NCBI GenBank assembly: GCA_029261055.1
Contig: JAJDCA010000015.1
Location: 83,998 to 147,997, forward strand
DNA length: 64,000 nucleotides
Source of the DNA: Candidatus Omnitrophota bacterium
Lineage (GTDB): Bacteria; Omnitrophota; Gorgyraeia; Zapsychrales; Zapsychraceae
Reading direction: 5' to 3'
Shown: positions 2,741 through 43,240 of the stretch, piece after piece
How the letters are laid out: each line of letters opens with the position of its first letter
Position numbering within the stretch: the stretch's first letter is position 1
The notes under the pieces: model-generated
Databases searched by the model: none
Told to the model about the DNA's origin: nothing
Seen by the model: only the letters and a program-made list of their open reading frames with translations
Made by a program: the position numbers and the translations under genes

Positions 2741-3028
2741 GTGATGAACATAACATTTGAATGGGATGCTTCAAAGGACAGGTTAAATCAAAAGAAACAT
2801 AATGTTTCTTTTTTCTTGGCGCAGCAGGCTTTTTTAGATAAAAATCGTATTGTTGCCCGAGATTTAGTACATAGTTGTACGGAGGAACGTTATTTTTGTA
2901 TTGGAAAAATTGGTGAGGGTATTATGACAGTTCGTTTTACATACAGAGGAGATGTTATTAGAATTATTGGAGCTGGATATTGGAGAAAAGGAAAGGTGTT
3001 TTATGAAAAAGAAAATAAAATATACTAA
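2741..3028 (+). CDS. brnT: BrnT-family (DUF497) type II toxin, a RelE-fold ribonuclease
   Basis: About 95 aa. It carries the FEWD...KHxVSF...HS..E.R...G...RIIGAGYW pattern typical of BrnT. It overlaps the downstream antitoxin gene. Confidence 0.75.
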   Translation: MMNITFEWDASKDRLNQKKHNVSFFLAQQAFLDKNRIVARDLVHSCTEERYFCIGKIGEGIMTVRFTYRGDVIRIIGAGYWRKGKVFYEKENKIY

Positions 3029-3230
3029 TGAAGCTATGGATTTTGAAATCCTTAAGGATTTTCTTCCTCCTCCGGAGAAGCTTGCTTTGAGAGAAGAAAC
3101 AGTTAAGGTTACGATTGGATTAAGCAAGTCAAGTGTGGACTTCTTTAAAATGTTTGCCAAAAAAAAACATGGTCATTATCAGACTATGATCAGAAAAATT
3201 CTAGATTCATATGTTGCGCATTATCATTAA
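3003..3230 (+). CDS. brnA: BrnA-family antitoxin (RHH/CopG-like); the likely start is the internal ATG at 3003 within ORF 2952-3230
   Basis: The C-terminus, VTIGLSKSSVDFFK...HGHYQTMIRKILDSYV, matches the BrnA ribbon-helix-helix region. It overlaps the brnT 3' end by 26 nt. Its stop codon abuts the ATG of the next gene. Confidence 0.65.
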   Translation: MKKKIKYTNEAMDFEILKDFLPPPEKLALREETVKVTIGLSKSSVDFFKMFAKKKHGHYQTMIRKILDSYVAHYH

Positions 3231-6200
3231 ATGATTAATCAACACAACACAAAAGGTTTTCGGGCATTATTAACGACGCAGTTCTTGGGGGCGTTTAATG
3301 ATAATGCGTTTAAGTTTGTTATTGCCGCGTTCATTGTAGATTTGATGGATCAGGCTGGAGGAGGGACAGGGTATTTGGCCCTTTCCGGTGTTGTATTTGT
3401 CCTACCGTTTTTACTTTTTTCCACATTGGGAGGTTATTTAGCGGATCGGTTTAGTAAGCAGAAGATCATTGTGGGTACAAAGATCTTTGAGCTGATGGTT
3501 ATGGCGGTGGGATTTTGGGCCTTGCTGAGTGGGCATATTGGACCGATGTTGGTCGTGCTGTTTTTTATGGGTTTGCAAAGTTCTCTTTTTGGGCCTTCCA
3601 AATATGGAATCCTGCCGGAGATGTTAGATGATAAAGAGTTATCCGAGGGCAACGGTTTGCTGCAGATGTGGACGTATGTAGCGGTTCTCCTTGGACAGAT
3701 GAGTTATGGATTTATTATGCAAGTGACACAGCCGCACTATTACAGGGCGGCTTTTATTTTTATGGCTATTTCGGTATGTGGAATTTTGGCCAGTTTATTC
3801 GTAACGAAAGTAAAACCTTCGGGGAGTGTGCGTCGTCATCAGATGAATGTTTTTAAAGAGGTGTATCAAAACATTCAATGGATCAAAAAAGACAGAGGCA
3901 TATTTCTTTCGATCATTGGATTGATGTATTTTGGTTTTCTGGGCGGCTTGTTTCAACCGAATGTCTTGTTGTTTGCACGAAAGATTCTTCACGTCAGCCA
4001 TTTACAAACAGGTTTGCTGATTTCTTGTATGACGATTGGTCTTGGTCTTGGGTGCATGGTAGCAGGAAAGTTGTCGGATAGAAAAGTGGAGCTTGGCCTG
4101 GTGCCTATGGGGGCGATTGGTTTAAGTGTGTTTTCTATTGGGTTGGGGGTGGTGGCGAATTCGTATGTTTTATCTTTAATTGATATTTTTCTTTTAGGCC
4201 TTTCTTGCGGGTTTTACATTGTCCCTTTAAATACCTTGATTCAGCAGAGGAGTCCGAAAGAAAATAGAGGGCAAATATTAGCGACCAATAGTGTTTTATC
4301 TTTTTGTGCGATTCTTATTGGATCGCTTTTTTTGTATGTACTTCGAGATATTGTCCATCTTAATGCCGCGCAGATTTTTATTTTTACAGGACTGCTGACC
4401 ATTGTTGGTACGGGATACATCACCTCTTTATTACCCTATGCCCTTATTCGCTTTATCATTTGGATGATTACACATACCATCTACCGGATTAAAAGTGTGA
4501 ATCGTCAAAATGTGCCTGAACAGGGTGGAGCGCTTTTGGTATCAAATCATGTGGCCTACATTGATGCCGTGATGATGATCGTTACGGTGCCAAGGACGAT
4601 TCGGTTTATGGTGTACCGCGAGATTTATTACATCAAATGGCTGAATCCATTATTTCGACTAGCAGGCGCCATCCCTGTAGCTGGTATTGATCGTCCTAAA
4701 GAAATTATGAAAGCTATCCACACGGCACGGGAGGCCATTGCGCAAGGAGAGTTGGTCTGTATTTTTCCTGAGGGGCAATTAACACGGACAGGGAATATGT
4801 TGAAGTTTAACCGGGGGATGGAAAAGATTATGAAGGGATTGGATTGTCCGATTATCCCTGTGCATCTCGACCGTGTGTGGGGAAGTATTTTCAGTTATGA
4901 GCGTGGAAAGTATTTCTTTAAAATGCCAAAGACGATTCCGTATCCGATTACGGTATCTTACGGTACCCCCATGCCGGCGGAATCAACGGCCTATGCGGTG
5001 AGAAATAAAATTATGGAATTGGGCGCAGATTCTTTGCCGCATCGTTTATCGGAGAAATTAACATTACCAGAAGCTTTTTTTCAAGAAGCGCGTAAACATC
5101 CGAAACAATTTTGTGCGGCGGATTCAAGTGGAAAGAAATTAAGTTTTGCCGAAGTTCTAATTTCTTCTGTGGTTTTATCTTTAAAGTTAAAACCTACCCT
5201 TAACGATCAATCGAATATTGGTATTCTCATTCCGCCTTCAATCGGTGGTGTTATTTCGAATGTTGCAGTCGCTATTTTGAATAAGGTTCCGGTCAATATT
5301 AATTACACGGCTTCCAAAGAAGCGCTTCAATCTGTGTGTGAGCAATGTCAGATGACACATATTTTAACATCGCGGACCTTTATGGATAAGATAAAGATCG
5401 ATTTGCCGGTTGAGCCGATTTATATCGAAGATATCGTTAAGCATATTTCAAAATTTGATCAAGTTATTTCTGCGATAAAATCATTTATGTGGCCGCGGTT
5501 TATTTCGTATACATTGATTTTTGGAAGCAAAAAGAAACGGCATATTTCTGATTTAGCGACCATTATGTTTACCAGTGGTAGTACAGGACAGCCCAAGGGG
5601 GTGATGTTAACGCATGCGAATATCACATCAAATCTTGAAGGGTTGTATCAAATTTTTCATGTAAATAAAGAGGATAGCGTAATGGGTATCCTTCCATTTT
5701 TTCATTCCTTTGGATTTACAGCCACACTTTGGTTTCCCTTAATAAGCGGGATGGGCGCCGTGTATCATGCTAATCCTTTGGACGCCAAGATGATTGGCAA
5801 GTTAGTTGCCAAGCACAAAGCCACTATTTTGATGAGCACGCCGACATTTCTTAATGCTTATATTCGTCGATGTGAAAAAGAGCAATTTGTAAGTTTACGT
5901 ACTGTTGTCGTTGGGGCGGAGAAGCTAAAGGAGCAGGTGGCTCAAGCCTTTAAAGAAAAATTTAATCTTGAGGCCATGGAAGGATACGGCTGTACAGAAT
6001 TGGCGCCTATTGTTTCATTAAATCTTCCGGATTATCGTGCTAAGGGCGTGCGTCAAAAAGCACATAAGCAGGGTAAGATCGGGCTGCCGCTTCCCGGGAT
6101 TGCCGTGAAAGTTTTAAATCCGGATACATTGCAGCCAGTGGAAGTGAATCAAAATGGATTATTGTTTGTTAAAGGGCCGAATGTGATGAAGGGGTACTTA

Positions 6201-11750: not shown

Positions 11751-11884
11751 AGACAAAGAAGTAAGAAGTAAAGAGGCCAGAGGCAGAGCCTCAAAGAGGC
11801 AAGATGCAGAGAAGTAAAAAGGTAAGGTGCAGAGAAATAGGATATAAAGTTATTTTTTTCTTTGCTTCTTACTTCTTTATCTCT
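11751..11884. repeat. Structured intergenic element: imperfect roughly 24-bp inverted repeat (AGACAAAGAAGTAAGAAGTAAAGAG / CTTTGCTTCTTACTTCTTTATCTC) enclosing reiterated GAGGCA / GCAGAG motifs and a T-tract
   Basis: Seen in the sequence. It fills the 171-nt gap between the DUF2339 gene and the small-ORF operon. Confidence 0.4.
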
Positions 11885-12489: not shown

Positions 12490-14739
12490 ATGTTAAAAAG
12501 ACGACACAATCTATTGTTCCGTTTGATGGCTGTATTTGTGATAGGGGCGTTTTCGTTAAACCTTATCATACTGCCCGCACAATCTTACGCGCAGAGCCGG
12601 TCTTCTGCCAATCTACCTGTTCCTGGGACGATGATTCATCCGAGCGAGCCTTTTTCACCTGTCTTAATCAAAGGGGTAAAGGTCTTTTCAGATAATCCTT
12701 TTCGGTTTGATTTTATTGTTAATCCTGGAGATGATGATTTAGAAGGGGATGCTTTGAAGGAAGAGTCGAATCGATTAATTAAATATTTTTTGGCCTCGTT
12801 AACAATTCCAGAGAAGGATATGTGGGTGAATCTTTCGCCGTATGAGGCTGATCGGATTATTCCGGGAAAGTTTGGTGAAACAGAGATGGGGCGTGATATG
12901 TTAGCGCAAGATTACATTTTGAAACAATTGACAGCATCTTTGATGTACCCGGAAGGGGAGATCGGCGAAAAATTTTGGGAACGTGTGTACGCAGAGGCGT
13001 ACGAAAAATATGGTATTACAGATATTCCAGTTGATACATTCCATAAAGTGTGGATTTTGCCAGCCAAAGCTGTGGTGTATGAAAATGCAGAAAATAACAC
13101 GGCGTTTGTGATGGAGAGTCGATTGAAGGTGATGCTGGAGGAGGACTATTTGGCGATGGCGAATAATATGAATCGTAGGGGTTTGATTCATCAAACCCAA
13201 GACAAGGGCATGATAAATCATGCCCCTACGACAACCATCCTTCGCGAAATTATCCTCCCCGAAATCGAACGCGAAGTCAACGAAGGCAAACACTTCGCCC
13301 CTTTACGCCAAATCTATCATTCCCTTATCCTCGCCACATGGTTCAAACGCAATTTACAAGAAAGCCTTTTAGGCCAGGGATATGTCGGTAAGAATAAAGT
13401 CGAAGGCGTCAATATCGAAGACAAAAATGCCAAAGAAAAAATTTATCAACAGTATGTCGATGCCTTTAAAAAGGGCGTCTATGATTTAATCCGAGAAGAG
13501 TATGATCCTAATACCCAAGAAATTGTGCCACGTAAGTATTTTTCGGGGGGAATTGTGACGAATTTGAATGTGGGGGAGGTTTATGAGAGTCAAAAAGAGA
13601 ATTTTGATGTGGCGATGATGAATGATTCTAAGAAATTAATACAAGTAATTACAAATTTTATTAAATTAAATGAAGAGGATTTAATTTACAAAAATTTTCC
13701 TCTTGAAACAGGGCTTAATTTTGGAAAGATATCAAAATTAATTTCGGAGAAGGCTCATCAAACATTTCTTGATAACCACAAGAATGAGTTTGAATCTATG
13801 GGGTTTACAAATTTAAGACTTCGAGATGATATAGATAAAATGAAAGGAAAATCCGGGGCATATTTTTTTCGAGCAAAAGATAAGGAAAAGAAAGAAGTTA
13901 TGATTCGTATAGGAAATGGGATATTCCCCATTATTCACTTATTTAAAGGAAAGAAATCTCATCCTAATATTATGCAGGTTTATAAAAATGGAGAGCTAAA
14001 GGATGGACAGGGATTTATTGTCTTAGAATTTATAGAAGGAGAGAATCTTTCAGATTTTATTCAGAGAAAAGATCATATTACAGGTGAGGAGATTAAACGT
14101 GTTTTTTATCAACTTCTTTCTGCGCTTGAATATTTTATTCTTAATGACATTATATTTTCTGATTTTAAACCTGATAATATTAGAATTTCCAAAGATAAAA
14201 AGCAGGTTACTGTTATTGATTTTCATTCCGCAAAGAGTATGTATGATAAAGAATTTCAGAAGGATATTCAATTAGAACAGCCATTAGTGTTTATGAGTCG
14301 TGTAATTTTTAAATTAACACAACAATCTGTAAAAAATAATAGTGAATTGATTGAAATAAGAAAAGTAATAAATAGCATTCATGAATATTCTCAATATTTG
14401 GAAGAAAAAAATAAATTTGGAAATATCGAAGAAAAAAAAGATGTGTTTTTAGGTCGAATAAATATGTTTAAAGAATATGTCTCTGATCAAGCATCTCTTG
14501 TGAATAATGATCCGCTTGGTGGTATTGACTTTAATCCGCAGGACTTAGCTATTGAGACGCAGGGGGATGGGGTGCGTATGGGGTTAGGATTGAATAGTGT
14601 TCCTTGTGAGGAAGAGGGTGCAGATAGCTCTAAGCCCTGTCAGCGTTGGGATCCTCAGGTATTGGAGAGGTCGACAGGTTTAAGTCCTGTTATTTTGAAT
14701 GTTGTTCCGCTGGATGATTTATCTGCTTTCCTTAATTAA
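12490..14739 (+). CDS. Sec-exported 749-aa protein with an unknown N-terminal domain and a C-terminal degenerate protein-kinase-like (Hanks-type) domain
   Basis: Signal peptide (KRR...AQSYA). It carries kinase-like subdomain strings: HPNIMQVY; FIVLEFIEGENLSDFI; YQLLSALEYF...IIFSDFKPDNI (compare HRDLKPEN); VTVIDFH (compare DFG). There are marked compositional shifts within the gene. Confidence 0.6.
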   Translation: MLKRRHNLLFRLMAVFVIGAFSLNLIILPAQSYAQSRSSANLPVPGTMIHPSEPFSPVLIKGVKVFSDNPFRFDFIVNPGDDDLEGDALKEESNRLIKYFLASLTIPEKDMWVNLSPYEADRIIPGKFGETEMGRDMLAQDYILKQLTASLMYPEGEIGEKFWERVYAEAYEKYGITDIPVDTFHKVWILPAKAVVYENAENNTAFVMESRLKVMLEEDYLAMANNMNRRGLIHQTQDKGMINHAPTTTILREIILPEIEREVNEGKHFAPLRQIYHSLILATWFKRNLQESLLGQGYVGKNKVEGVNIEDKNAKEKIYQQYVDAFKKGVYDLIREEYDPNTQEIVPRKYFSGGIVTNLNVGEVYESQKENFDVAMMNDSKKLIQVITNFIKLNEEDLIYKNFPLETGLNFGKISKLISEKAHQTFLDNHKNEFESMGFTNLRLRDDIDKMKGKSGAYFFRAKDKEKKEVMIRIGNGIFPIIHLFKGKKSHPNIMQVYKNGELKDGQGFIVLEFIEGENLSDFIQRKDHITGEEIKRVFYQLLSALEYFILNDIIFSDFKPDNIRISKDKKQVTVIDFHSAKSMYDKEFQKDIQLEQPLVFMSRVIFKLTQQSVKNNSELIEIRKVINSIHEYSQYLEEKNKFGNIEEKKDVFLGRINMFKEYVSDQASLVNNDPLGGIDFNPQDLAIETQGDGVRMGLGLNSVPCEEEGADSSKPCQRWDPQVLERSTGLSPVILNVVPLDDLSAFLN

Positions 14740-14799
14740 GAGATTGGCCAAAAAAATGTTCTGCCAATCTCCAAAGCGGCTTTAATTCCCCGAGGTGGT

Positions 14800-15075
14800 T
14801 TATTCCATGAGTTTTTTGATAGCGTCTTTTTTTTCTTCGGGAAGGCATTTGTGGGAAGGAGGGGAGTCTTTTTCTAGGGCGGAGGTATATTGACCAAAAA
14901 TTTTATGAAAGCCGCGGAGTTGGCGGCGGTATTTGATGCACATTCGGCACATTATTAAATGTACATTGAGTTTTATGGTTTCACCGAAGGTTAGCTTTTC
15001 CTCAAGGCTTTTGGAAATCAATTCCGTGGCAATTCTACACGATGTAATATCTTTTAATTTCATGCTTTTATCCAA
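14800..15075 (-). CDS. Anti-sigma factor, zinc-binding ZAS type (RsrA/ChrR-like), soluble
   Basis: HxxxCxxC motif (HLIMCRMC) plus additional Cys residues. It overlaps the 3' end of the ECF sigma gene by 16 nt. Confidence 0.6.
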   Translation of the reverse strand: MDKSMKLKDITSCRIATELISKSLEEKLTFGETIKLNVHLIMCRMCIKYRRQLRGFHKIFGQYTSALEKDSPPSHKCLPEEKKDAIKKLME

Positions 15076-15647
15076 TGGGTATCAATGCAGTCCCTTAATA
15101 GGGAACGGGCGCGGTGGAGTAGTACGTAAAGGTTAGACGTCGTTATTCCCAGAATATTACAAATTTCTTTAACATTCATATGCTCAACTTCACGCATGGT
15201 GAATGCTTGAGCCCCTACAGCAGCGAGTTTTCCCAGGCACATCTCAAAAATTTTCCAGAATTCTTTTTTCTCTAGAAGTTCGTTTGGATTAGGAATCCAA
15301 TTGGACGGGCTTTTTTTGTGGCATTCTCGTTGCGCCATTTTAAATAAATGATCCACCGATAAATCGTCTATGTTGATTTGTTCTGATGAACGTGTTTTGT
15401 ATTTTGCCCGCAGAAAATCCATAATTTTATTTTTGAGAATACTGATCAACCAGGAAAATTCTGAGGCTTCACCACGGTATTGTTCACGTGCTTTAAAGGC
15501 GGAAAGAAATGTTTCCTGCACGAGGTCTTGAGCCACTTCGACTTTATTAATGCGTGATAAAGCGTAACGATAAAGGCGGTCGCCGTATAAATCCACCCAT
15601 TGTTTGGCATCCTGTGAAGAGTATTTTTTTGGAGAATTGTCTGTCAT
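15060..15647 (-). CDS. ECF (group IV) RNA polymerase sigma-70 factor
   Basis: Region 2 (DLVQETFLSAFKA...) and a region 4 HTH (ICNILGITTSNLYVLLHRARSLLR). Confidence 0.85.
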   Translation of the reverse strand: MTDNSPKKYSSQDAKQWVDLYGDRLYRYALSRINKVEVAQDLVQETFLSAFKAREQYRGEASEFSWLISILKNKIMDFLRAKYKTRSSEQINIDDLSVDHLFKMAQRECHKKSPSNWIPNPNELLEKKEFWKIFEMCLGKLAAVGAQAFTMREVEHMNVKEICNILGITTSNLYVLLHRARSLLRDCIDTHWIKA

Positions 15648-15655
15648 GATATTTC

Positions 15656-15725
15656 ATACCAAATCCATTAAATAATTGTACTATCTTTAGCAAGGATTTT
15701 GGTCATTATTTAATGGATTTGGTAT
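15656..15725. promoter_or_regulatory. Perfect 21-bp inverted repeat (ATACCAAATCCATTAAATAAT ... ATTATTTAATGGATTTGGTAT) with a 28-nt spacer, immediately upstream of the ECF sigma start codon in the divergent sigma/luxR region
   Basis: Seen in the sequence. The left arm starts 9 nt from the sigma ATG. Confidence 0.45.
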
Positions 15726-15836
15726 CATTATAGTCAATTTTCTGAAAATTGGAAAATTTTTGTAAGAAAAAGGTTAGTTTTGCGTCTTCCCATTAAGAGA
15801 TTGTCCAAAAACAACTTGGACAACTCCTAAACACAA

Positions 15837-16217
15837 ATGAAAATGATGGGAGGAACAATGAAGAAACAACAAAGATTTGAAGAACACGTTAACGCCAATA
15901 TTAAGAATATTCTATTACCGCTTGTTGAGAAATTAATACTGCGATATGGGCAAGGCAAGGATTTGTTGCAGTTAAAAAAGGAGATTGAAAATATTGTCTC
16001 ATCTTATGGGATCACAATATCAGACCCAGCCTTCAGATTAACACGTAGAGAAATAGAAATTTGTAATATGATCCGAAATGGATTGACAACAAAGCAGATT
16101 GCCGATTTAATAAATATTTCGCCTATCACGGTCGAAAGGCATCGGAACAACATTCGAAAGAAATTTGGTATAAATAATGAAAAAGAAGTATTATCTGATT
16201 ATCTGCGAAGACTTTAG
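15837..16217 (+). CDS. LuxR/GerE-family HTH transcriptional regulator
   Basis: C-terminal HTH: LTRREIEICNMIRNGLTTKQIADLINISPITVERHRNNIRKK. Confidence 0.8.
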   Translation: MKMMGGTMKKQQRFEEHVNANIKNILLPLVEKLILRYGQGKDLLQLKKEIENIVSSYGITISDPAFRLTRREIEICNMIRNGLTTKQIADLINISPITVERHRNNIRKKFGINNEKEVLSDYLRRL

Positions 16218-16317
16218 TGCATGTTTTTTACAGGTTGTTAGGTTTTATATTTGTTGATATACTAAATTTTTTATAATCCTAAATATTTGGAAAATAATGA
16301 GTTAAAAGAATAAAGAT

Positions 16318-17445
16318 ATGTCTGCACATTTTCAAAGAAATGATATTGATTCAAATTCTTCTGTTTTCAAAATCAGCGGTGTTTTGAATTCAAAATCGGT
16401 GGGGCCGGTCTGGCGTCAAGCCATGCTTGCTTTAGATGATAATCCTCCTAAGAATCTCACTATCGATACTTCTGAGGTTGAGTATTGTGACGGGGCGGGG
16501 ATAGGATTGTTTATTGAGTTGAACCGGCGTCAAAATGAGAAGAAATTTGGTTTTGAAATTGTTGGTTTGAAAGAAGAGTTTCAGCGTTTATTGAATGTTT
16601 TTGATACAGGAAAAGGCATACAAAAGTTAAAAGGTCCAGAAAAGCAAGAAGACGGCCTATTTGTAAACTGGGGCAAGAGTTTTTGCAGCCTTTTGAAGCA
16701 GTTATCTGAAGAGATTATTTTTATCGGATCGCTTTCCTGTGCCATGATTCAGGCGATAAGATCACCTAAAAAGAAAATTCGTTGGAAAGATATGTGGGGG
16801 GCCGTTATCGAAGGCGGAATCGGCGCGCTACCGATTGTTGTCTTAATCAATTTCTTAGTAGGCCTTATTATGGCTTTTCAGGCGGCCATTCCGATGAAAC
16901 AGTTTGGAGCGGATATTTTTGTGGCTGATTTGGTGTCCTTATCTATTTTAAGGGAATTGGGCCCACTTATGACGGCGATTGTATTAGCGGGACGCACCGG
17001 TTCGGCTTTTGCTGCTGAATTGGGAACAATGAAAGTTAATGAAGAAATTGATGCGCTGCATACCATGGGGCTTAATCCGATTAACTTTCTTGTCATCAAT
17101 CGTGTTTTTGCCGTTATTATTTTTATGCCGATCTTAACACTTTTTGCTGATTTAGCCGGATTAATGGGGGGGTCGGTTGTTTTTACATCATTCGGCTATC
17201 CGATGATCACATATTTTAATCAAATCATAAATGCCGTTCAGTTGCACGATTTTCTGGGTGGATTTGTAAAATCATTTGCGTTTGCTTTAATTATAGCCTC
17301 TGTCGGATGTCTTAAAGGTTTAGAAACAAAAACAGGCGCAAGCGCCGTAGGAAAGTCTGCCACCAATGCCGTTGTGACCGGACTAATCCTTATTATTTTA
17401 ACCGATGGAATATTTTCCATCATTTATTATTTTTTAGGAATTTAA
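16318..17445 (+). CDS. mlaE: STAS-domain (MlaB-like) fused to the MlaE/YrbE ABC permease
   Basis: The N-terminal roughly 110 aa form a STAS/anti-sigma-antagonist fold. The C-terminal permease has the conserved MlaE core (LGPLMTAIVLAGRTGSAFAAELGTMKVNEEIDAL). Confidence 0.8.
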   Translation: MSAHFQRNDIDSNSSVFKISGVLNSKSVGPVWRQAMLALDDNPPKNLTIDTSEVEYCDGAGIGLFIELNRRQNEKKFGFEIVGLKEEFQRLLNVFDTGKGIQKLKGPEKQEDGLFVNWGKSFCSLLKQLSEEIIFIGSLSCAMIQAIRSPKKKIRWKDMWGAVIEGGIGALPIVVLINFLVGLIMAFQAAIPMKQFGADIFVADLVSLSILRELGPLMTAIVLAGRTGSAFAAELGTMKVNEEIDALHTMGLNPINFLVINRVFAVIIFMPILTLFADLAGLMGGSVVFTSFGYPMITYFNQIINAVQLHDFLGGFVKSFAFALIIASVGCLKGLETKTGASAVGKSATNAVVTGLILIILTDGIFSIIYYFLGI

Positions 17446-17453
17446 TGAGACAC

Positions 17454-17708
17454 GAAATCGCTTTCGAGAAAAGATTAACGCATTCGGCTCAGAAGAGATC
17501 TCCTTCTGGTCGATCTCTAATTCGTCTCATGCCTCAATCTTTTCTCTACGCGATTACGGCGCTTAATTTATAAAGTATCGGTCAACCCGTCTTATCAAGA
17601 GGTTGTGTTAAAGCCTGCAGGCGAATTGGAGGCCGAGCAGAACGAGGTCTCCTCTGAGCCGGAAGGTTTTAACACAACCTCCAATAGACGGGTTGACTTG
17701 AAAGTGTC
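17454..17708. repeat. Structured GC-rich intergenic repeat, copy A (about 255 bp), with a long nested hairpin GTCAACCCGTCT...AGACGGGTTGAC
   Basis: It shares its 5' module (GAAATCGCTTTCGAG.AAAGATTAACGCATTCGGCTCAGA), a CGCGATTACG core, and the terminal hairpin plus the TTGAAAGT tail with copy B. Confidence 0.6.
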
Positions 17709-17736
17709 TTTTAATTTTGACGCTATGGTTTAAATT

Positions 17737-18513
17737 ATGACTGAAAAGAAAAAAATTATTGAAGCTCGGAATATGAGTGTTGGGTATGGGGATACTGTTA
17801 TTCTTAAGGAAGTAACATTTCACGTCAATGAAGGGGAGATATTTATTATTCTTGGCGGGTCCGGTTGTGGGAAGAGTACTTTGTTAAAGAATCTTATTGG
17901 GCTTTATGACATTATTTCCGGGGATGCTTTGATTGATGGGCAGAATATTGGTAAAGCAGAAGGTCAGGAGTTGGTGAATATATTTAATAAAATTGGTGTT
18001 AGTTATCAAAGTGGGGCTTTATTTGGGTCTATGACTTTATTGGAAAATGTTATGCTTCCTTTAGAAGAGTTTACCGATCTTCCCCAAGATGCACGAGAGA
18101 TGATTGCGGCTATGAAGTTGCGGTTGGTTAATTTGGAAGGGTTTGAACATTTTATGCCATCTGAAATTTCCGGAGGGATGCAGAAGAGGGCGGCCATTGC
18201 CAGGTCCATGGCATTAGATCCACAAATTATATTTTTGGATGAGCCGTCAGCCGGGTTGGATCCGATAACATCGGCAGAGTTAGACCAATTGATTATGCGG
18301 TTAGCCAAGAATTTAGGCATTACTTTTGTTATTGTTACGCATGAGTTGGATAGTGTTTTTACCATTGCAGATCGATGTATTTTTTTAGATAAAGTATCCA
18401 AAGGGATTATTGCGGAAGGTCATCCGAAAGAATTGAAAGAACATTCAAAGGTAGACTTTGTTAAACGATTTTTTAATAGAGAAGTTGAAACAAATCAAAA
18501 GGAAAAAATATGA
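17737..18513 (+). CDS. mlaF: MlaF-like ABC transporter ATP-binding protein
   Basis: Walker A GGSGCGKST, signature LSGGMQKR, Walker B IIFLDEP. Confidence 0.85.
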   Translation: MTEKKKIIEARNMSVGYGDTVILKEVTFHVNEGEIFIILGGSGCGKSTLLKNLIGLYDIISGDALIDGQNIGKAEGQELVNIFNKIGVSYQSGALFGSMTLLENVMLPLEEFTDLPQDAREMIAAMKLRLVNLEGFEHFMPSEISGGMQKRAAIARSMALDPQIIFLDEPSAGLDPITSAELDQLIMRLAKNLGITFVIVTHELDSVFTIADRCIFLDKVSKGIIAEGHPKELKEHSKVDFVKRFFNREVETNQKEKI

Positions 18514-19358
18514 GTCAAAAAACACAGTATTTTAAAATTGGATTATTTATTCTTATTGGGAGTAGTATCCTTGTCGCCGGTATCATTGTATTAGGCGCCG
18601 GGAAAATATTTGAGAAGAAAATATATGTTGAAACATATTTTTCTACTTCAGTTCAGGGTATTGATATCGGAACGCCTATCAAATGCCGTGGGGTTAAAAT
18701 AGGAAAAGTCGATCAAATTAATATTGTTGGGGATGCTTATGATTTTGGTGGGGATATGGATAAATTTCGTAAATACGGGCTTTATGTGAGAGTACGAGGA
18801 GCTTTAAAAATCGGAGCGATATCCCTTATTACACAAAAATTAAACCAAAAGGAAATTGATCATTTAGTGCAAAATGAAGGTTTAAGATTAAAAATGGTTC
18901 CTTTGGGCATTACGGGGTTGTCATATTTAGAACTTGATTTCGGTAACGGCGAATATCCTCTTATGGATATTATTTGGAAACCAAAATTGGTGTATATTCC
19001 CTCGGTGCCCAATGAATTTGAAATGTTCATTAGAGGTTTGATGACTTTTTCAAAATCAATGAACGAAGACATTAAACCTATTTTGGAAAATTTACGGGAA
19101 GCATCGAAAAGTTTTCCTGAGACGACAAAAAATATCAATAAGGGCTTAGGAAGTGTTTCCGAATTAAGCACGAATTTAAATAGTGCTGTTATTAATGCGA
19201 ATAAGATTATGGGAGAGAATCAGCAGAATCTTAAAGAGACAATGAATAATATTAAATTTATTACCAATGATCTTCGGGATGTCTCTCAAGAATTAAAAAA
19301 TAATCCTTCGCGTGTCATTTTTGGAGAGGCCCCACCCAAACAGGGAGTTGAACGATAA
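18510..19358 (+). CDS. mlaD: MlaD / MCE-domain substrate-binding protein
   Basis: N-terminal TM anchor followed by an MCE domain. It overlaps the mlaF stop by 4 nt. Confidence 0.8.
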   Translation: MSQKTQYFKIGLFILIGSSILVAGIIVLGAGKIFEKKIYVETYFSTSVQGIDIGTPIKCRGVKIGKVDQINIVGDAYDFGGDMDKFRKYGLYVRVRGALKIGAISLITQKLNQKEIDHLVQNEGLRLKMVPLGITGLSYLELDFGNGEYPLMDIIWKPKLVYIPSVPNEFEMFIRGLMTFSKSMNEDIKPILENLREASKSFPETTKNINKGLGSVSELSTNLNSAVINANKIMGENQQNLKETMNNIKFITNDLRDVSQELKNNPSRVIFGEAPPKQGVER

Positions 19359-19969
19359 TGAAAAAAATATTTTTATATTGTATGTTATTTGCTAATTTTG
19401 TATTTTTAACGGGATGTGTGAGTCTAAACAAAGATTATCCGGACGTAAAAAGTTATTCCATTCGTATTCTTCGGGAAAAGAATAATGTTGTTCCCTCCAA
19501 AAGAATTACATTAAAGATTAATGCATTTGATATTGCAGAGCAGTTTGCAACCAAAAATCTTGTGTATAAAAAAGAGAAGTTGAATTTTAATGCGGATTAT
19601 TACAATCGATTCACATCTTATCCAGAAATCATGTTAGCTGATCAAATGCGTGAATGGTTCAGTAAAGCTCCCTTTATTAAAGAGGTAATCCTTCCCGAAG
19701 ACTCCAGAACAGCCAATTATTCAATCAATGCGTATATCAGTGAAATTTATGGTGATTTTTCTAAGCAAGAAAAACTCAAAGCTGTTATTAGCATAAAGTT
19801 AACTGTATTAGATGTTCAGAATGATGCAGTGGTTTTATCTAAGTTATACCGTGAAGAAATTAATCTTAAGAAAATGACAGTTTCAGAATTAATAGAAGGC
19901 TATCAGTCTGCTTTTAGGAAAGTTTTAGGGGTATTTGAATCGGATATAAATAAATTCACACATATTTAA
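19358..19969 (+). CDS. Lipoprotein, ABC-transport auxiliary component (DUF330-like) of the Mce/Mla operon
   Basis: Lipobox FLTGC after the signal peptide. About 200 aa. It abuts the mlaD stop. Confidence 0.6.
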   Translation: MKKIFLYCMLFANFVFLTGCVSLNKDYPDVKSYSIRILREKNNVVPSKRITLKINAFDIAEQFATKNLVYKKEKLNFNADYYNRFTSYPEIMLADQMREWFSKAPFIKEVILPEDSRTANYSINAYISEIYGDFSKQEKLKAVISIKLTVLDVQNDAVVLSKLYREEINLKKMTVSELIEGYQSAFRKVLGVFESDINKFTHI

Positions 19970-20010
19970 ATTAAAATTACTGTGTTGACGGAAAACATTA
20001 TGAAAGATAT

Positions 20011-20232
20011 GAAATCGCTTTTGAGCAAAGATTAACGCATTCGGCTCAGAGGAGGCCTCGTTCTGCTCGGCCTCCAATGGTTCGACAAGCTCACCACTAT
20101 TTTAGGCTTGTCGAATAAGTTCGCCTCATGCGCCAATTTTTGCTTTGCGCGATTACGATTCTTAAATTTTTATACTGTCGGTCATCCCGTCTTAACATAA
20201 ACTTCGATAGACGGGATGACTTGAAAGTATCC
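20011..20232. repeat. Structured intergenic repeat, copy B (about 220 bp), with hairpin GTCATCCCGTCT...AGACGGGATGAC and an inverted GGAGGCCGAGCAG module
   Basis: See copy A. Its 5' and 3' modules are about 85-90% identical to copy A. The internal module is in the opposite orientation. Confidence 0.6.
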
Positions 20233-20275
20233 GGTAATTTGAATAGCCAAGAAATAATTTAGAAAGGAAAAGATA

Positions 20276-21139
20276 ATGGTAAAGAATATTTATGAGGATC
20301 AGAATTATCCGGAAGCGGTATTGCCTTCGTGTCCGATTGACAAAAAGTTGAAAGGACAAACGGCCATAGTCACAGGGGCCAGTTCAGGTATTGGGCAATC
20401 TATTGCATTGGCGATGGGGCGTGCCGGAGCTAATGTGATTATTAATTACATATCTGGTGATGAGGCTTTAAAGGAAATGGTGCCGGAGATTGAGCGTTGT
20501 GGAGGCAAGGCTATTGGGTTTCAGGCTGATGTTTCGAAAGAAGATCAAGTTCAGGCCATATTTGCCAAGGCATGTGAAGAATTTGGGACGGTGGATATTC
20601 TGGTGAATAATGCCGGTTTACAGCAAGATGCCGCTTTTGATGAAATGACGCTGGCCCAATGGCAAAAGGTGATTGATGTGAATTTAACGGGGCAATTTTT
20701 GTGTGCGCGAGAGGCTGTGCGTGAATTTAAAAAAAGTGGTGTAAAAAAAGAAGTGTCGTGTGCGGCTGGAAAGATTATTTGTGTTAGCTCGGTGCATGAA
20801 GTCATTCCTTGGGCGGGCCATGTCAATTATGCAGCCTCCAAAGGTGGAGTTATGCTTATGATGAAAAGTATTGCCCAAGAATGTGCTCCGTTTCGAATTC
20901 GCATAAACAGCATATGCCCCGGGGCGATTAAAACACCTATTAACACAGAGGCATGGTCCACACCTGAAGCACAAAAAGAATTGCTTAAACTTATTCCTTA
21001 TCAGCGTGTCGGGGAAACGGCTGATATTGCACGAGTCGCCGTATGGTTGGCCTCTGATGATTCCGATTACATTAATGGAACCAGTATTTTTGTAGATGGG
21101 GGGATGTGCCTATATCCGGGGTTTGCTACTGGAGGATAA
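20276..21139 (+). CDS. Short-chain dehydrogenase/reductase (glucose-1-dehydrogenase-like SDR)
   Basis: TGASSGIG cofactor motif, NNAG, catalytic YAASK. Confidence 0.8.
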   Translation: MVKNIYEDQNYPEAVLPSCPIDKKLKGQTAIVTGASSGIGQSIALAMGRAGANVIINYISGDEALKEMVPEIERCGGKAIGFQADVSKEDQVQAIFAKACEEFGTVDILVNNAGLQQDAAFDEMTLAQWQKVIDVNLTGQFLCAREAVREFKKSGVKKEVSCAAGKIICVSSVHEVIPWAGHVNYAASKGGVMLMMKSIAQECAPFRIRINSICPGAIKTPINTEAWSTPEAQKELLKLIPYQRVGETADIARVAVWLASDDSDYINGTSIFVDGGMCLYPGFATGG

Positions 21140-21212
21140 TGGTGCAAAAATATTTTCACTTTGTAAGGAAATGCATTCTTGATCGACAAACTGGATAACT
21201 AATTGCTATATT

Positions 21213-21344
21213 ATTTCAGAAATTCTTGAAGCGTCTAAGGCCACCGCGGTGTATGCCGTGCTCAAACAGCCGAGCAGAGCTCGGAAACTGCGCGCGGCAT
21301 ACCCCACAATGCCCTTTTAACGACGCTTCAAGAATTTCTGAAAT
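21213..21344. repeat. 132-bp palindromic element: perfect 23-bp terminal inverted repeats (ATTTCAGAAATTCTTGAAGCGTC / GACGCTTCAAGAATTTCTGAAAT) enclosing an 86-bp GC-rich core with internal stems and a GCCGAGCAGAG motif shared with repeats A and B
   Basis: Seen in the sequence. It lies between the SDR gene and the GH15 gene. Confidence 0.55.
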
Positions 21345-21386
21345 TATCTAATACCAGATGAAGGTCGTTAATGGAGGGAATAAAAC

Positions 21387-23183
21387 ATGTCGAATTATCA
21401 ACCAATCGAAAATTATGGTATTATCGGTGATCTACACACCATTGCTTTAGTGGGGATGGACGGATCCATTGATTTTATGTCGTTTCCGCATTTTGACTCG
21501 CCGACGATATTTGCGGCCTTACTTGATCATGAAAAAGGTGGACGCTTTCAAATTTGTCCCAAGCTGGACCAGGCACGCCACAAACAGCTTTATCTTCCGG
21601 ATACAAATATATTGTTAACACGCTTTTTATCAGAAAGCGGTGTAGCTGAAATTTCTGATTTTATGCCTATCGAAGAATGTTGTGCGCACAGGATTGTGCG
21701 TCGTGTCAAAACGATTCGCGGAGAAGTCACCTACCAAATGAAATTTGCCCCAAAGTTCAATTATGCCCGGGATACCCATAAAGTCGAGGAAAAGGAAAAA
21801 GGGATTCTGTTCATCTCGGAAGGTGAAGACAAACAGACCATTTTTCTTCGATGCTCTGTGCCGGTAAAGATTGTTAATGGCGAAGCTGTCGCGGAATTTA
21901 AGTTGCATGCCGGCGAAACAGCTTCATTTATTTTAGAGCAGTATTCAGCCAACGGATCACCGGCCGATGCGCCGGATTACATATCCCGGTCATTTAAATC
22001 CACGGTCAATTTTTGGCGTAATTGGATAGCCAAGTCAAATTACAAAGGACGTTGGCGGGAAATGGTAGATCGCTCTGCGCTTGTTTTAAAGCTTCTGACT
22101 TCAAAGCCACATGGTTCCATTGTAGCCGCCCCAACATTTGGATTGCCGGAAGAGCTCGGTGGTGAACGGAATTGGGATTATCGCTATACATGGATTCGGG
22201 ATGCGTCTTTCACCTTGTATGGATTAATACGGCTTGGATTTACCGATGAAGCTGCTTCTTTTATGAAATGGATTGAAGCACGTTGCGGTGAATTAAATCC
22301 CGACGGTTCTCTTCAGATTATGTATGGCATTGATGGACGTCACAAATTAACAGAAATAACTTTAGATCATTTTGAAGGATATAAAAAATCTGCGCCTGTG
22401 CGTATTGGAAATGGCGCTTATGATCAATTGCAATTAGATATTTATGGCGAGCTAATGGATTCTGTTTATCTGTATGATAAATACGGATCACAAATATCGT
22501 ATGACTTGTGGCAAAATCTCATTCGGTTGGTGGATTGGGTGTGTGATAATTGGCATAAAACAGATGAAGGAATTTGGGAAGTGCGTGGTGGGCAACAAGA
22601 GTTTTTGTATTCCCGGTTGATGTGCTGGGTAGCCCTTGACCGAGGCATTCGACTTGCGCGGAAACGATCTTACCCTGCACCCATTCAAAAATGGAAGTCT
22701 GTTCGTAATGAAATTTATAATGCGATTTTTACTGATTTTTGGAGTGACGATTTAAAGGCTTTTACGCAATACAAGGGATCATCAACCCTTGATGCTTCGA
22801 ATCTTTTGATGCCGATGGTACGTTTTATCAGTCCGACCGATCCTCGCTGGATATCCACCTTAAACGCCATTCAAAAAGAGCTGGTTGATGATTCTCTGGT
22901 GTACCGCTACAAGGTTCAAGAAGGCGCTTCAGATGGTTTGTCCGGCGAAGAGGGCACATTCTGCATGTGTTCATTTTGGAATGTGGAATGCCTTTCGCGT
23001 TCGGGAGATGTGAAGAAGGCCAGGTTTTTATTTGAGAAAATGTTGGGTTATGCCAATCATTTGGGTCTTTATGCCGAGGAGCTTGGGCCAAGTGGAGAGC
23101 ATTTGGGGAATTTTCCGCAAGCATTCACACATTTGGCGCTGATTAGTGCAGCGTATGATTTGAATAAACGATTAGGGGAATAA
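21387..23183 (+). CDS. Glycoside hydrolase family 15 (glucoamylase / trehalase-like)
   Basis: 598 aa. GH15 signatures: NWDYRYTWIRDASFTLYGL and a C-terminal (alpha/alpha)6-barrel region. Confidence 0.8.
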   Translation: MSNYQPIENYGIIGDLHTIALVGMDGSIDFMSFPHFDSPTIFAALLDHEKGGRFQICPKLDQARHKQLYLPDTNILLTRFLSESGVAEISDFMPIEECCAHRIVRRVKTIRGEVTYQMKFAPKFNYARDTHKVEEKEKGILFISEGEDKQTIFLRCSVPVKIVNGEAVAEFKLHAGETASFILEQYSANGSPADAPDYISRSFKSTVNFWRNWIAKSNYKGRWREMVDRSALVLKLLTSKPHGSIVAAPTFGLPEELGGERNWDYRYTWIRDASFTLYGLIRLGFTDEAASFMKWIEARCGELNPDGSLQIMYGIDGRHKLTEITLDHFEGYKKSAPVRIGNGAYDQLQLDIYGELMDSVYLYDKYGSQISYDLWQNLIRLVDWVCDNWHKTDEGIWEVRGGQQEFLYSRLMCWVALDRGIRLARKRSYPAPIQKWKSVRNEIYNAIFTDFWSDDLKAFTQYKGSSTLDASNLLMPMVRFISPTDPRWISTLNAIQKELVDDSLVYRYKVQEGASDGLSGEEGTFCMCSFWNVECLSRSGDVKKARFLFEKMLGYANHLGLYAEELGPSGEHLGNFPQAFTHLALISAAYDLNKRLGE

Positions 23184-24167
23184 ATGCACACAGAAGATCA
23201 AACAGTAAAATTGACACAGGAAGATATTTATGGCTGGCCTGGGTATAGAATGAGTGTTGGTGACATCAGCCTGGGCATTACCCCCCAAATTGGCGGACGG
23301 ATTATATCACTCACGCATAAGGATGAAGAATTATTCTTTGCTCAAGATGAGCATAAAGGGGAAATATATAATTTTGAAAATGTAGCAGATTTAAAATCTG
23401 AAAAGAAACGTTTAGGCTTTCGTCTTTGGGGAGGGGATAAAACATGGGTTTCTCCGCAAGGCACTTGGTGGGAAAAAATTCCTCCGCTTGAAATAGATGC
23501 CGGTCAATATACCTTCACTAAGGTCGAAGAATTGCCTACATCTGTGACGCTGGAAATGACAAGTCTTGTTTGTCGTGAAACAAATTTACAAGTTACGCGG
23601 TGTATTCAATTAAGAGATGATGAATCCATTCATCTTAAACAAACGTTTTGCAATCATGCAAATGAGGATGTTCGTCTTGGCATATGGAATGTGACGCAAA
23701 TGCTAAGGCCATTTAATGTGTATTTCCCGACAAACAAGTCAAAAATACGTGCATATAAGGATGAAGGGTTAATTGAGGATGCGGAAGCAAAGATTACGGA
23801 AAATAATAATTGGGTCAAGATTTGTTGTGATGATAATACGCATTTTAAGTTTGGAGGGGCCCTTGATTTTGGCGTTAGTGTGGCCTTACGAAATTATCAC
23901 CTGGATGTTCGTCAAGAATCTGTAGAGACATTAGCTTTTGTAAAGCTGTTTGACATTGATTATGGGGCATCTTATGCCCATGATGCCGTTGCCGAAGTTT
24001 ATAATTCTCCCAAATATAATTATTTGGAGTTAGAAGTTCATGCGCCTTTTTATGTTTTAAAAAAAGGTGAAGAATATTCTCACAGTCAGGCTTGGCGTAT
24101 TGGAAGACTCGAAGGGGACGTGACACCTAAACAGGCTTTGGAGGCTTTGACAAAAGGGTATGCATGA
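23184..24167 (+). CDS. Hypothetical protein co-transcribed with GH15; possibly a sugar-binding or mutarotase-like accessory protein
   Basis: Its start abuts the GH15 stop and its end overlaps the aquaporin start by 4 nt. I recognise no motifs. Confidence 0.5.
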   Translation: MHTEDQTVKLTQEDIYGWPGYRMSVGDISLGITPQIGGRIISLTHKDEELFFAQDEHKGEIYNFENVADLKSEKKRLGFRLWGGDKTWVSPQGTWWEKIPPLEIDAGQYTFTKVEELPTSVTLEMTSLVCRETNLQVTRCIQLRDDESIHLKQTFCNHANEDVRLGIWNVTQMLRPFNVYFPTNKSKIRAYKDEGLIEDAEAKITENNNWVKICCDDNTHFKFGGALDFGVSVALRNYHLDVRQESVETLAFVKLFDIDYGASYAHDAVAEVYNSPKYNYLELEVHAPFYVLKKGEEYSHSQAWRIGRLEGDVTPKQALEALTKGYA

Positions 24168-24958
24168 TCAATGCTTTGCGTAAACATTGGCCGGAATATT
24201 TAATGGAAGCGTGGGGATTGGGGATGTTCATGGTCTCAGCTTGTCTTTTTGCTGCTCTTTTAGAATATCCAGGATCTCCGGTCAGGCAGATGATTGAGAG
24301 TTCTATTGTACGTCGTGCTTTTATGGGATTAGCCATGGGGTTAACAGCCGTAGGCATTATTTATTCTCCATGGGGCCAGCAATCAGGAGCGCATATCAAT
24401 CCGGCTTTTACTTTTACATTTTATCGTCTTGGAAAAATTGCTTCATGGGATGCCTTTTTTTATATTGTTTTCCAATTTCTTGGGGCTGTTTTAGGCGTTG
24501 CAGTATCTGCATTCTTTTTATCGAAATATGTTACGGATCCTGCCGTCAATTACGTTGTGACAATCCCTGGTGCTGCAGGAACTATTATTGCATTTATTTC
24601 AGAGATGCTGATGTCGTTTGGTTTAATGCTGATGGTATTAATCGTCACGAATCATAAAAAATTATCCGCCTATACCGGTTATTTTGCCGGTATATTTTTG
24701 TTATTTTATATTACTTTTGAAGCCCCCCTATCAGGTATGAGCATTAATCCGGCGCGTACGTTTGGGTCAGCTTTACCGTCAGGTGTGTGGGATGCCTGGT
24801 GGCTTTATATGATTGCTCCTTTAATAGGGATGATGTTGGCCGCAGAATTATATGTTCGTCGCGTAGGTTTAAAAAATATTTTTTGTGCGAAATTAAATCA
24901 TGACAATCATAAACGGTGTATTTTTTTCTGCGGATGCGGGAACTATAGAGGGAGATAA
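24164..24958 (+). CDS. MIP-family channel (aquaporin / aquaglyceroporin)
   Basis: Two NPA motifs (GAHINPAFT and MSINPARTF), six TM segments, 264 aa. Confidence 0.85.
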   Translation: MINALRKHWPEYLMEAWGLGMFMVSACLFAALLEYPGSPVRQMIESSIVRRAFMGLAMGLTAVGIIYSPWGQQSGAHINPAFTFTFYRLGKIASWDAFFYIVFQFLGAVLGVAVSAFFLSKYVTDPAVNYVVTIPGAAGTIIAFISEMLMSFGLMLMVLIVTNHKKLSAYTGYFAGIFLLFYITFEAPLSGMSINPARTFGSALPSGVWDAWWLYMIAPLIGMMLAAELYVRRVGLKNIFCAKLNHDNHKRCIFFCGCGNYRGR

Positions 24959-25060
24959 AAAAATATTGTCATCCCCGAATGTTTTAGTCGGGGATCAATG
25001 ATTTTCAACTGGATTCCCGCCTGCGCGGGAATGACAGGTTTTAAAATAAGGAGGTTATTA

Positions 25061-40034: not shown

Positions 40035-40044
40035 GAGAAAGAAT

Positions 40045-41439: not shown

Positions 41440-41445
41440 AAAGGA

Positions 41446-41688
41446 GTGACAATGAATGAGTTAACTTTATACTACAAACAAACGTGTCCGTATTGCAGTA
41501 AAGTCCTTCATTTTATGCAAGAAAAGGATATAAAGGTTGAACTTAAAAGTACGGAAAATGATGATAATAGAAATGAATTAATTCAGCTGGGCGGCAAACC
41601 ACAGGTGCCTTGTCTTGTCATCAAAGGAACAGCAATGTATGAATCAGATGATATTATTCAATGGTTTCAAGAAAATTTAGCCTCATGA
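41446..41688 (+). CDS. Glutaredoxin
   Basis: CPYC active site (TCPYCSKV). 80 aa. Confidence 0.8.
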   Translation: MTMNELTLYYKQTCPYCSKVLHFMQEKDIKVELKSTENDDNRNELIQLGGKPQVPCLVIKGTAMYESDDIIQWFQENLAS

Positions 41689-42509
41689 GAAAATATAATT
41701 TAATAATTTTAGCTGGTGGTGAGGATGAAGACTGGTGTCATCAGTACGGCTGTAAAAGAAAAGCTGAATTGCCGCTTTATGGTAAGCCGATGATTGATTT
41801 GGTTGTCGATGCTTTTCATAAAAGTTCATATATCGATCAAATTATAGTTGTTGGGCCTAAAGATCTTGATCAACTGAAATCAATGAAGCATGTTCATAAG
41901 CGGCTTAATGAAGGGAAGTCATTTATTCAAAATCTTCTTAAGGCCGTATATTACATTAAATCGTCGATTTACAAATTTTCTAATAATCATAATGGTTATC
42001 TTATTTCGTTTTGTGATGCAGCCCATCTCAATACAAAGATTATTAATGCAACTTTAGAAAATATGTCTCGGCATGATGCGGGGCTTGTTTTGCATTATGT
42101 AGAAAAAGAAACTATTTCTCAAAGTGGCTTTCCAATTGAAAATCGCACTTTTTTACCTATTGGCGGAAAAAAATATTCAGGTTCTAATATCTATTACGTA
42201 AAGAAAGCCCGGTCGCTGCTGAATGTGGTGTGGGATATTATTAATCTTCGGAAATTACGCAAAGAACCGAAAGAATTTTTAAAATATTTAGATTGTGAAG
42301 AGGGGGGTTGGCCAAAAATTGAAAAAGTTGTAGAACAACATATGCGAACAAAAGTTAAAGTTTTTGTGTCTCCTTTTGCAGAAATGGGTGTGGACGTCGA
42401 TAAACCAATTGATTATGAATTAGCCAAACTGCATACAGCCAAATCGCGCAAGAAGTTTTTAAAGCAGAATGAAGCATCCTCAAGTAACCTCATGCATAGT
42501 CAGAGATAA
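41685..42509 (+). CDS. MobA-like NTP-transferase family nucleotidyltransferase
   Basis: N-terminal LIILAGG nucleotide-binding motif. ATGA overlap with the glutaredoxin stop. Confidence 0.6.
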   Translation: MRKYNLIILAGGEDEDWCHQYGCKRKAELPLYGKPMIDLVVDAFHKSSYIDQIIVVGPKDLDQLKSMKHVHKRLNEGKSFIQNLLKAVYYIKSSIYKFSNNHNGYLISFCDAAHLNTKIINATLENMSRHDAGLVLHYVEKETISQSGFPIENRTFLPIGGKKYSGSNIYYVKKARSLLNVVWDIINLRKLRKEPKEFLKYLDCEEGGWPKIEKVVEQHMRTKVKVFVSPFAEMGVDVDKPIDYELAKLHTAKSRKKFLKQNEASSSNLMHSQR

Positions 42510-43228: not shown

Positions 43229-43240
43229 AGGAGAATCATC

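Follow-up and report, generated by a model that had tools for sequence, protein, structure and literature searches.

Elements A and B in the mla region

The 64,000-nt stretch of DNA analyzed here, referred to as the window, belongs to contig JAJDCA010000015.1 of a Candidatus Omnitrophota bacterium (assembly GCA_029261055.1) and contains an mla cluster with genes for the STAS-MlaE permease, the MlaF ATPase, MlaD, and an auxiliary lipoprotein, flanked by genes for an ECF sigma factor and a LuxR-type regulator on one side and for a short-chain dehydrogenase and a GH15 glucoamylase-like protein on the other (Table 1). The region was annotated from Pfam domains and open reading frames (ORFs), nearly all genes of the window lie on the + strand, and the best named relatives of MlaF come from Candidatus Omnitrophota metagenome-assembled genomes (MAGs; 65-75% identity), with an identical MlaF recorded from an NCBI contig of 150 kb and from a Logan assembly. 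Three spacers in this region hold hairpin-rich elements, designated A (between mlaE and mlaF), B (after the lipoprotein gene), and C (between the dehydrogenase and GH15 genes), which an earlier examination made without database searches (the sequence-only reading) had described as a single repeat family. A and B are homologous and are, on balance, best interpreted as diverged copies of one modular interspersed repeat, non-coding, non-autonomous, and specific to this lineage; C is treated as a separate single-copy palindrome to which no function is assigned. The description of all three as far more GC-rich than the surrounding DNA was overstated, since the 100-nt peaks of G+C in these regions reach 0.49-0.52 compared with a window mean of 0.40, and the three whole intergenic regions range from 0.39 to 0.44 (0.20-0.35 in most other spacers).

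The two elements align from end to end except for two large indels, with 84% identity over the 5' 74 nt, 81% identity over the 3' 52 nt, and a longest exact common run of 24 nt (AAAGATTAACGCATTCGGCTCAGA). Chance similarity, a possibility left open by the sequence-only reading, is ruled out by nhmmer (E = 7e-19 and 2e-19) and by a degenerate 28-nt core pattern that matches exactly three sites (the hairpin units U1, U2, and U3 described below) against 0.00 expected. The shared parts reported previously are all present in both elements, including the 5' module that begins with GAAATCGC at 17454 and 20011, the core CGCGATTACG, and the terminal hairpin GGTCA(A/T)CCCGTCT...AGACGGG(T/A)TGAC followed by TTGAAAGT, in which the change from A-T to T-A is compensatory. 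A 37-nt module of A (17625-17661) is, as had been noticed, the reverse complement of B 20042-20078, with 97% identity, and the homology between A and B extends slightly past the limits first given for them.

Table 1. Positions in the window of the genes, elements, and hairpin units of the mla region, and of the Logan contigs (SRR15505515) that map to the window.
Feature	Position	Strand	Remarks
ECF sigma factor	15060-15647	-	
LuxR-type regulator	15837-16217		
STAS-MlaE permease (mlaE)	16318-17445		stop codon 17443-17445
Element A as insertion	17446-17728	+	between mlaE stop (17443-17445) and mlaF start (17737)
Element A, part homologous to B	17448-17717	+	
A, left long hairpin H1	17454-17557	+	outer stem GAAATCGC/GCGATTAC around U1; folds, inverted repeat
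Unit U1	17466-17546	+	11-bp basal stem; core GGC-TCAGA-(7-bp stem, 11-nt loop TCCTTCTGGTC)-AATTC-GTC
A, right long hairpin H2	17580-17697	+	outer stem GGTCAACCCGTCT/AGACGGGTTGAC around U2; inverted repeat, folds
Unit U2	17599-17681	-	core as in U1 and U3 but inverted; in loop of right hairpin of A
MlaF ATPase	17737-18513		
MlaD	18510-19358		
Auxiliary (mla) lipoprotein	19358-19969		
Element B	20005-20240	+	spacer between lipoprotein gene (end 19969) and dehydrogenase (start 20276)
B, left hairpin H1	20011-20156	+	encloses U3
Unit U3	20023-20150	+	inside left hairpin of B
B, extra branch hairpin	20079-20119	+	41 nt, TTCGACAAGC...GCTTGTCGAA; in internal loop AAT/TCG of U3; missing from A
B, right hairpin H2	20180-20220	+	stem GGTCATCCCGTCT/AGACGGGATGAC; loop holds 3' remnant of lost inverted unit
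Short-chain dehydrogenase	20276-21139		
Element C	21207-21350	unassigned	spacer between dehydrogenase and GH15 genes
GH15 glucoamylase-like	21387-23183		
Logan contig	up to 13199		
Logan contig	13260-17499		
Logan contig	17688-20040		
Logan contig	20073-25038		
Logan contig	39828-50318		
Logan contig	60665 onwards		

Hairpin units and compensatory change

The building block of both elements is a hairpin unit of ~83 nt that occurs three times, twice in forward orientation and once inverted within the 3' hairpin of A. When the units are compared in the register of their stems (MAFFT misregisters the basal stem of U2, which produces false "broken" pairs in RNAalifold), 62 of the 63 stem cells are paired, and nine of 21 positions are altered on both sides. 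All three units have the same internal loops, TCAGA and AATTC, and the same apical loop, TC-N-TTCTG-N-TC, in which positions 3 and 9 swap jointly from C/G to G/C. The basal stem of U2 is paired along its full length, yet its sequence is wholly unlike that of U1 and U3. Projection of the structure predicted for A onto B gave 55 testable pairs, of which 37 are conserved as such, 6 differ on one side only, 6 differ on both sides, and 6 are broken, four of the latter outside the element proper.

The overall plan of the elements would be a short closing stem around the two long hairpins H1 and H2, in which H1 carries the unit and H2 would originally have carried the same unit in inverted orientation, retained in A and mostly lost from B. 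In the loop of the right hairpin of B, ~24 nt from the end of a U2-like arm survive (TTAACATAAACTTCGATAGACGGG compared with TTAACACAACCTCCAATAGACGGG), so that B looks like a deletion derivative and A does not look like an insertion derivative. The extra stretch of ~80 nt in the hairpin of A, which the sequence-only reading took for an insertion, is an inverted copy of the hairpin unit that also makes up the 5' module. The ancestral element probably carried two mutually inverted units, judging from these comparisons, of which B would have lost one, presumably through a deletion across the hairpin, and B would also have acquired its branch hairpin, of which neither the window nor the fetched loci hold a second copy. 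As far as can be read from the three units, the family is modular, with hairpin modules gained, lost, and inverted.

Folding is strong in both elements, with RNA minimum energies of -120.4 kcal/mol for A (z -9.5) and -90.6 kcal/mol for B (z -8.0) relative to dinucleotide shuffles. A also folds strongly as single-stranded DNA (z -7.9). Among the 20 window spacers that exceed ~50 nt, the one containing A is the most structured (z -12.7, mononucleotide shuffles), and the other spacers that stand out in this respect are those of B and C, those of a second palindrome family (see below), and the tRNA region.

Insertion, copy number, and alternative explanations

Comparison with relatives was based on the three with a readable mlaE-mlaF junction and on a fourth locus (L005) with an expanded spacer. 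In GCA_021108075.1 the spacer between mlaE and mlaF measures 3 nt, in an ENA relative and a JGI relative it is reduced to 1 nt, and the C-terminus of MlaE (...YYFLGI) and the N-terminus of MlaF (MTEKKK...) are conserved in place, which indicates that A is a recent insertion of ~283-291 nt and not a conserved regulator. Excision of 17446-17733 recreates GGAATTTAA joined to ATTATG, a sequence in which 3 nt lie between the stop codon and the start codon, and the word TTTAA at 17441 and 17729 flanks A as a possible 5-bp target duplication that would give a clean empty site, although this word is common locally. By this comparison A is inserted into a tight junction that was probably translationally coupled before its arrival. 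In L005 (ENA ERZ27227322 k141_396653; MlaF 71% identity), mlaE and mlaF are separated by an unrelated spacer of 329 nt (368-696) that is mostly AT-rich with GC-rich ends (GTGCCCGCCTGCC... and ...GCGGGCGGGAATCAC), indicating that the junction tolerates insertions and was expanded independently in another lineage. No homologs of A, B, C, or the units were found by nhmmer in the fetched loci of the relatives. Additionally, the idea that A and B are the attL and attR sites of an integrated element was rejected, since the mlaF-mlaD-lipoprotein block between them is ancestral and has the same order in relatives.

The sequence-only reading had also proposed that the elements are cis-acting RNAs that tune the stoichiometry of the Mla components (e.g., as attenuators or processing sites). 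On this view they would be dedicated structures of the mla transcript, possibly also stabilizers, selected to set the relative amounts of MlaE, MlaF/D, and the lipoprotein. This proposal is consistent with the position of both elements at gene boundaries of one operon, with the invariant loops and covarying stems, and with the strand on which A folds best (-120.4 kcal/mol on the + strand, -111.4 kcal/mol on the - strand); the sense strand has 13 G-U pairs and one A.C mismatch compared with 6 and 4 on the antisense strand. The excess of G-U pairs fits constraint at the level of RNA, but strand-biased (C-to-T) mutation could give the same pattern. One unit is inverted, a change that would be intolerable for an RNA-level signal, and B lies beyond the last mla gene. 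Neither element was found at the same mla position in the relatives examined (three with the 1-3 nt junction, one with the unrelated spacer), and an Rfam scan at gathering and permissive thresholds returned no family for A or B. Terminator-like sites with a hairpin and a T-run were absent from A, B, and C (ordinary terminators are present elsewhere in the window, e.g., near 2665-2695 and 60800-60850), no promoter-like sites were found in A or B, and neither element sequesters a ribosome-binding site. An outward promoter in the conserved TTGACTTGAAAGT tail was considered and rejected, as no matching -10 element lies at a usable distance. A dedicated regulator of the mla genes is thus unlikely, and the elements look, with reasonable probability, like a lineage-specific repeat of a familiar kind.

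The number of copies was approached through the Logan contigs of SRR15505515, which hold the same organism (100% identical to the window) and which we take to have been assembled with k=31. Four contig ends fall inside A or B (17499, 17688, 20040, and 20073). No canonical 31-mer or 25-mer recurs within the window, and exact sharing between A and B is limited to 24 nt, so that breaks at these points require each element to have at least 30 nt in common with sequences elsewhere in the sample. The limits of the A/B homology are matched by two of the ends, in that the last 30-mer of one contig starts exactly at 20011 and the first 30-mer of another ends exactly at 17717. Recombinant A/B molecules were rejected as the cause of the breaks, given that a crossover at the common 24-mer predicts ends at 17493 and 20050 and the observed ends are at 17499 and 20040. 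Amongst the other six contig ends, four lie at or beside small palindromes: the gap 13200-13259 (two ends) overlaps a GTAG...CTAC double hairpin at 13175-13229, the end at 25038 lies beside the palindrome ATTCCCGCCTGCGCGGGAAT (25013-25032), and the end at 50318 lies within a palindrome of the second family. The end at 60665 is inside a tRNA gene, and that at 39828 is the sole end in unremarkable coding DNA. Contig ends in this assembly thus mark repeats, and A and B behave accordingly. Further copies of A/B are probably present elsewhere in the sample, an estimate that reflects assembler behavior and is not a copy count.

These breaks also bear on a purely local explanation, in which recombination or slippage duplicated a single element without a wider family or mobility. 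The two visible copies are 2.6 kb apart in the same orientation, and no match was found in the collections searched, as this explanation would predict. However, the contigs break inside A and B despite the lack of a repeated 25-mer, most of the remaining contig ends are likewise associated with palindromes, each of A and B must have stretches with an exact match elsewhere in the sample even though the two differ by 16-19%, and the inverted third unit demands at least one extra copying event. A purely local duplication is therefore considered rather unlikely.

Direct searches for further copies were empty, and these negatives are weak, as the source genome was apparently not searchable in the collections and no close relative was included. 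An exact 20-mer of the 5' module gave one match in the GTDB species genomes, within a coding gene of an unrelated MAG and attributable to chance; two degenerate core patterns found nothing in JGI metagenomes, four patterns (including the arm of C) found nothing in IMG/VR, and blastn likewise gave no match when A was compared with plasmids and B with phages. The same was true of nhmmer searches with A, B, C, and the units in ~1.4 kb of the same organism beyond the window. Since gene callers might have called ORFs within other copies, the open pieces of A and B were joined into a six-frame pseudo-protein of 788 aa, which matched nothing in 5.8 billion predicted proteins; A and B are small (230-290 nt) and non-coding, and their six-frame peptides have no homolog in that collection.

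Several observations weigh against the interpretation of A and B as copies of an interspersed repeat. A third copy was never seen directly, all searches of the collections being empty, and the two visible copies lie in one operon at a distance that local duplication also explains. No transposase (Y1 or other) was found in the 64-kb window. The terminal inverted repeats are covarying but just 5-7 bp long (AGACAC/GTGTCT in A, GATAT/GTATC in B), the long inverted repeats being internal. The candidate target duplication TTTAA is found at A only, in AT-rich DNA where the word has four occurrences within 300 nt, and a duplication of the same geometry was looked for at B and not found. Finally, invariant loops, covarying stems, and an excess of sense-strand G-U pairs would also be expected of a selected RNA.

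A further explanation regards A and B as stand-alone structured non-coding RNA genes or as recognition hairpins for a dedicated protein (e.g., a transposase that acts on single-stranded DNA and reads loops and bulges, like those of the REP/RAYT or IS200/IS605 type). The core of ~45 nt, whose loops are constant in all three copies while its stems covary freely, and the stability of the hairpins as single-stranded DNA are in keeping with this view. IS200/IS605 elements have matched left-end and right-end hairpins. In A and B the outer stems of H1 and H2 are unrelated, the elements are not flanked by sites resembling promoters or terminators, the window lacks a Y1 or other transposase, and the GTAG/CGTC head of REP sequences is missing from the ~83-nt unit (PMC3733652). 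This explanation is held to be very unlikely. It is also improbable, if somewhat less so, that the core (GGC-UCAGA-(7-bp stem, loop UCNUUCUGNUC)-AAUUC-GCC), around which every stem covaries, is a functional recognition module and not passive repeat sequence, either as the substrate of an undescribed Omnitrophota single-stranded DNA transposase or recombinase or as a domesticated protein-binding or processing RNA in operons that include mla.

The interpretation of A and B as members of an interspersed repeat agrees with the REP/MITE-like character suggested by the sequence-only reading, in that they occupy two non-homologous intergenic sites, include one inverted module, have gained and lost modules, interrupt (in A) a junction of 1-3 nt, and coincide with contig breaks. 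The evidence shows that the two elements are homologous and structured, that their stems have changed in a compensatory manner, that A is an insertion, that the relatives lack both, and that the assembly breaks at them; multi-copy status, a route of mobility, co-transcription, and effects on RNA are what we infer beyond this. The elements would have landed in intergenic spacers after this lineage had diverged from the closest relatives with sequenced genomes, A in the once tight mlaE-mlaF junction and B after the last mla gene, presumably through a transposase or recombinase whose gene lies in another part of the genome, or else through recombination. Neighboring genes on the same strand and the lack of a predicted promoter or terminator make co-transcription probable, and A and B are thus predicted to form very stable structures within the operon RNA. 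If they behave like REP/BIME, BOX, ERIC, and Correia elements, these hairpins of approximately -90 to -120 kcal/mol would uncouple the translation of mlaF from that of mlaE and could act as barriers to exonucleases and RNA decay, as substrates of RNase III, or as processing sites. Such effects on RNA would be side effects and not the reason for the existence of the elements.

Known repeats offer parallels of differing closeness. BOX elements of Streptococcus pneumoniae and S. suis have the organization boxA - boxB(n) - boxC and are present in >100 copies per genome (Croucher et al. 2011, PMC3049150). They resemble A and B in having conserved end modules, variable internal modules that do not disturb the rest of the fold, extensive structure, a location in transcribed regions (a probable one for A and B), and no coding capacity, and in that any mobilization would depend on a protein whose gene lies outside the element. 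The analogy is architectural only, since the host phylum differs and the modules of A and B are long hairpins, one of them inverted, instead of tandem boxB modules. The ERIC/IRU, Correia (NEMIS), and bacterial MITE families reviewed by Delihas (2011, PMC3184786) share with A and B their form as imperfect palindromes of 100-300 bp in spacers and within operons and their internal insertion and deletion variants. They are co-transcribed as long hairpins and are known to influence the stability or processing of mRNA incidentally, as is predicted for A and B. However, the terminal inverted repeats of Correia elements measure 26 bp and are accompanied by duplication of TA, compared with the 5-7 bp of A and B and a candidate TTTAA at A only, and MITEs are typically AT-rich, whereas A and B have a higher G+C content than the DNA around them. 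REP/BIME sequences (PMC3733652) are similar as extragenic palindromes in operons with compensatory stems, alternating orientation, and a proposed role in mRNA stabilization or attenuation, but they are 20-40 nt long, have a conserved tetranucleotide head, and are linked to RAYT, in contrast to a unit of ~83 nt in an element of 230-290 nt with no such head and no RAYT gene seen. The A/B family is thus placed beside the BOX, ERIC, Correia, and REP families by its general architecture and not by sequence, and its kinship with MITEs proper is at most tentative.

The finding does not open a long-standing question. If correct, it adds one more lineage-specific family of small repeats in a poorly studied uncultured phylum and demonstrates that a tight mlaE-mlaF junction accepts a hairpin insertion of ~290 nt. 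Elements of this kind fragment short-read assemblies and are mistakable for regulatory RNAs, and they represent natural test cases for the influence of long hairpins in operons on translational coupling and RNA decay.

Element C and other palindromes of the window

The perfect 23-bp inverted repeats reported around the 86-nt core of C are present and form part of 29-nt arms (21207-21235 and 21322-21350) with 93% complementarity. C is strongly structured (z -7.1) and folds better on the - strand (-82.9 kcal/mol) than on the + strand (-73.3 kcal/mol), and its Rfam match to MIR2084 (34.7 bits, against a gathering score of 100) reflects the long hairpin. Membership of C in the A/B family was not borne out, as the single word that they share is the 10-mer GCCGAGCAGA, matched by 8% of shuffled versions of C, and kinship was rejected on the basis of a best local alignment score below the shuffle mean. 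A Logan contig passes through C unbroken. C is one of several palindromes of the window with perfect arms, which are intergenic and mostly situated just 3' of stop codons. Palindromes directly 3' of stop codons are also found at 11751-11882 and 63826-63913, one with purine-rich arms of 24 bp around an 84-nt core and the other with GTGATCAGTGGTCAGTGGTCAG repeats; neither has a second copy in the window or the fetched loci.

A second palindrome family is represented at 15650-15732 and 50286-50404, with perfect 21-bp arms of ATACCAA(A/T)TCCATTAAATAAT and its complement around loops of 28 or 62 nt. In GCA_021108075.1 (MlaF 70% identity), a copy lies upstream of the mla cluster (L006 3961-4053) and is, by eye, ~85% identical including the inner sequence, and a half-copy follows the mla lipoprotein gene (L006 8298-8331). 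In this family, the right arm overlaps a promoter-like sequence, TGGTCA-17-TATCAT (extended TG), aimed at the LuxR and mla genes.

The double hairpin at 13175-13229 is a 55-nt sequence (GTAGGGG...CCCCTAC) with two small hairpins that lies in frame within an ORF of 749 aa resembling a Ser/Thr kinase (12490-14739). It is similar to GTAG-tagged REPs inserted in coding sequence, and the contig gap at this site suggests another repeat family. The perfect palindrome ATTCCCGCCTGCGCGGGAAT occurs once in the window, just 5' of the likely start of a GMC oxidoreductase gene, and the contig ends 6 nt later; it has the form ATTCCC-N8-GGGAAT of neisserial dRS3 repeats. An imperfect, GC-rich palindrome of ~110 nt (60510-60620) is located just upstream of the only tRNA gene of the window (60648-60720), in a spacer (60455-60886) that is strongly structured (z -8.8).

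Amongst the remaining genes of the window, a BrnT/BrnA-type toxin-antitoxin pair is located at 2744-3230 (3243-3729 of Logan contig L012, as called there), preceded by the terminator at ~2665-2695. A single ORF of 1516 aa at 44325-48875 combines a full AcrB-type RND pump (residues 4-1027) with an outer-membrane efflux protein (OEP) domain (residues 1329-1509), an unusual fusion of inner- and outer-membrane efflux components. Beyond the 3' end of the window (~810-890 nt), short repeated words without similarity to A, B, or C (CCTTGGAG ... CTTTGGAG) occur in intergenic DNA after a radical-SAM gene at the end of Logan contig L014 (4144-4226), and these may represent another repeat.

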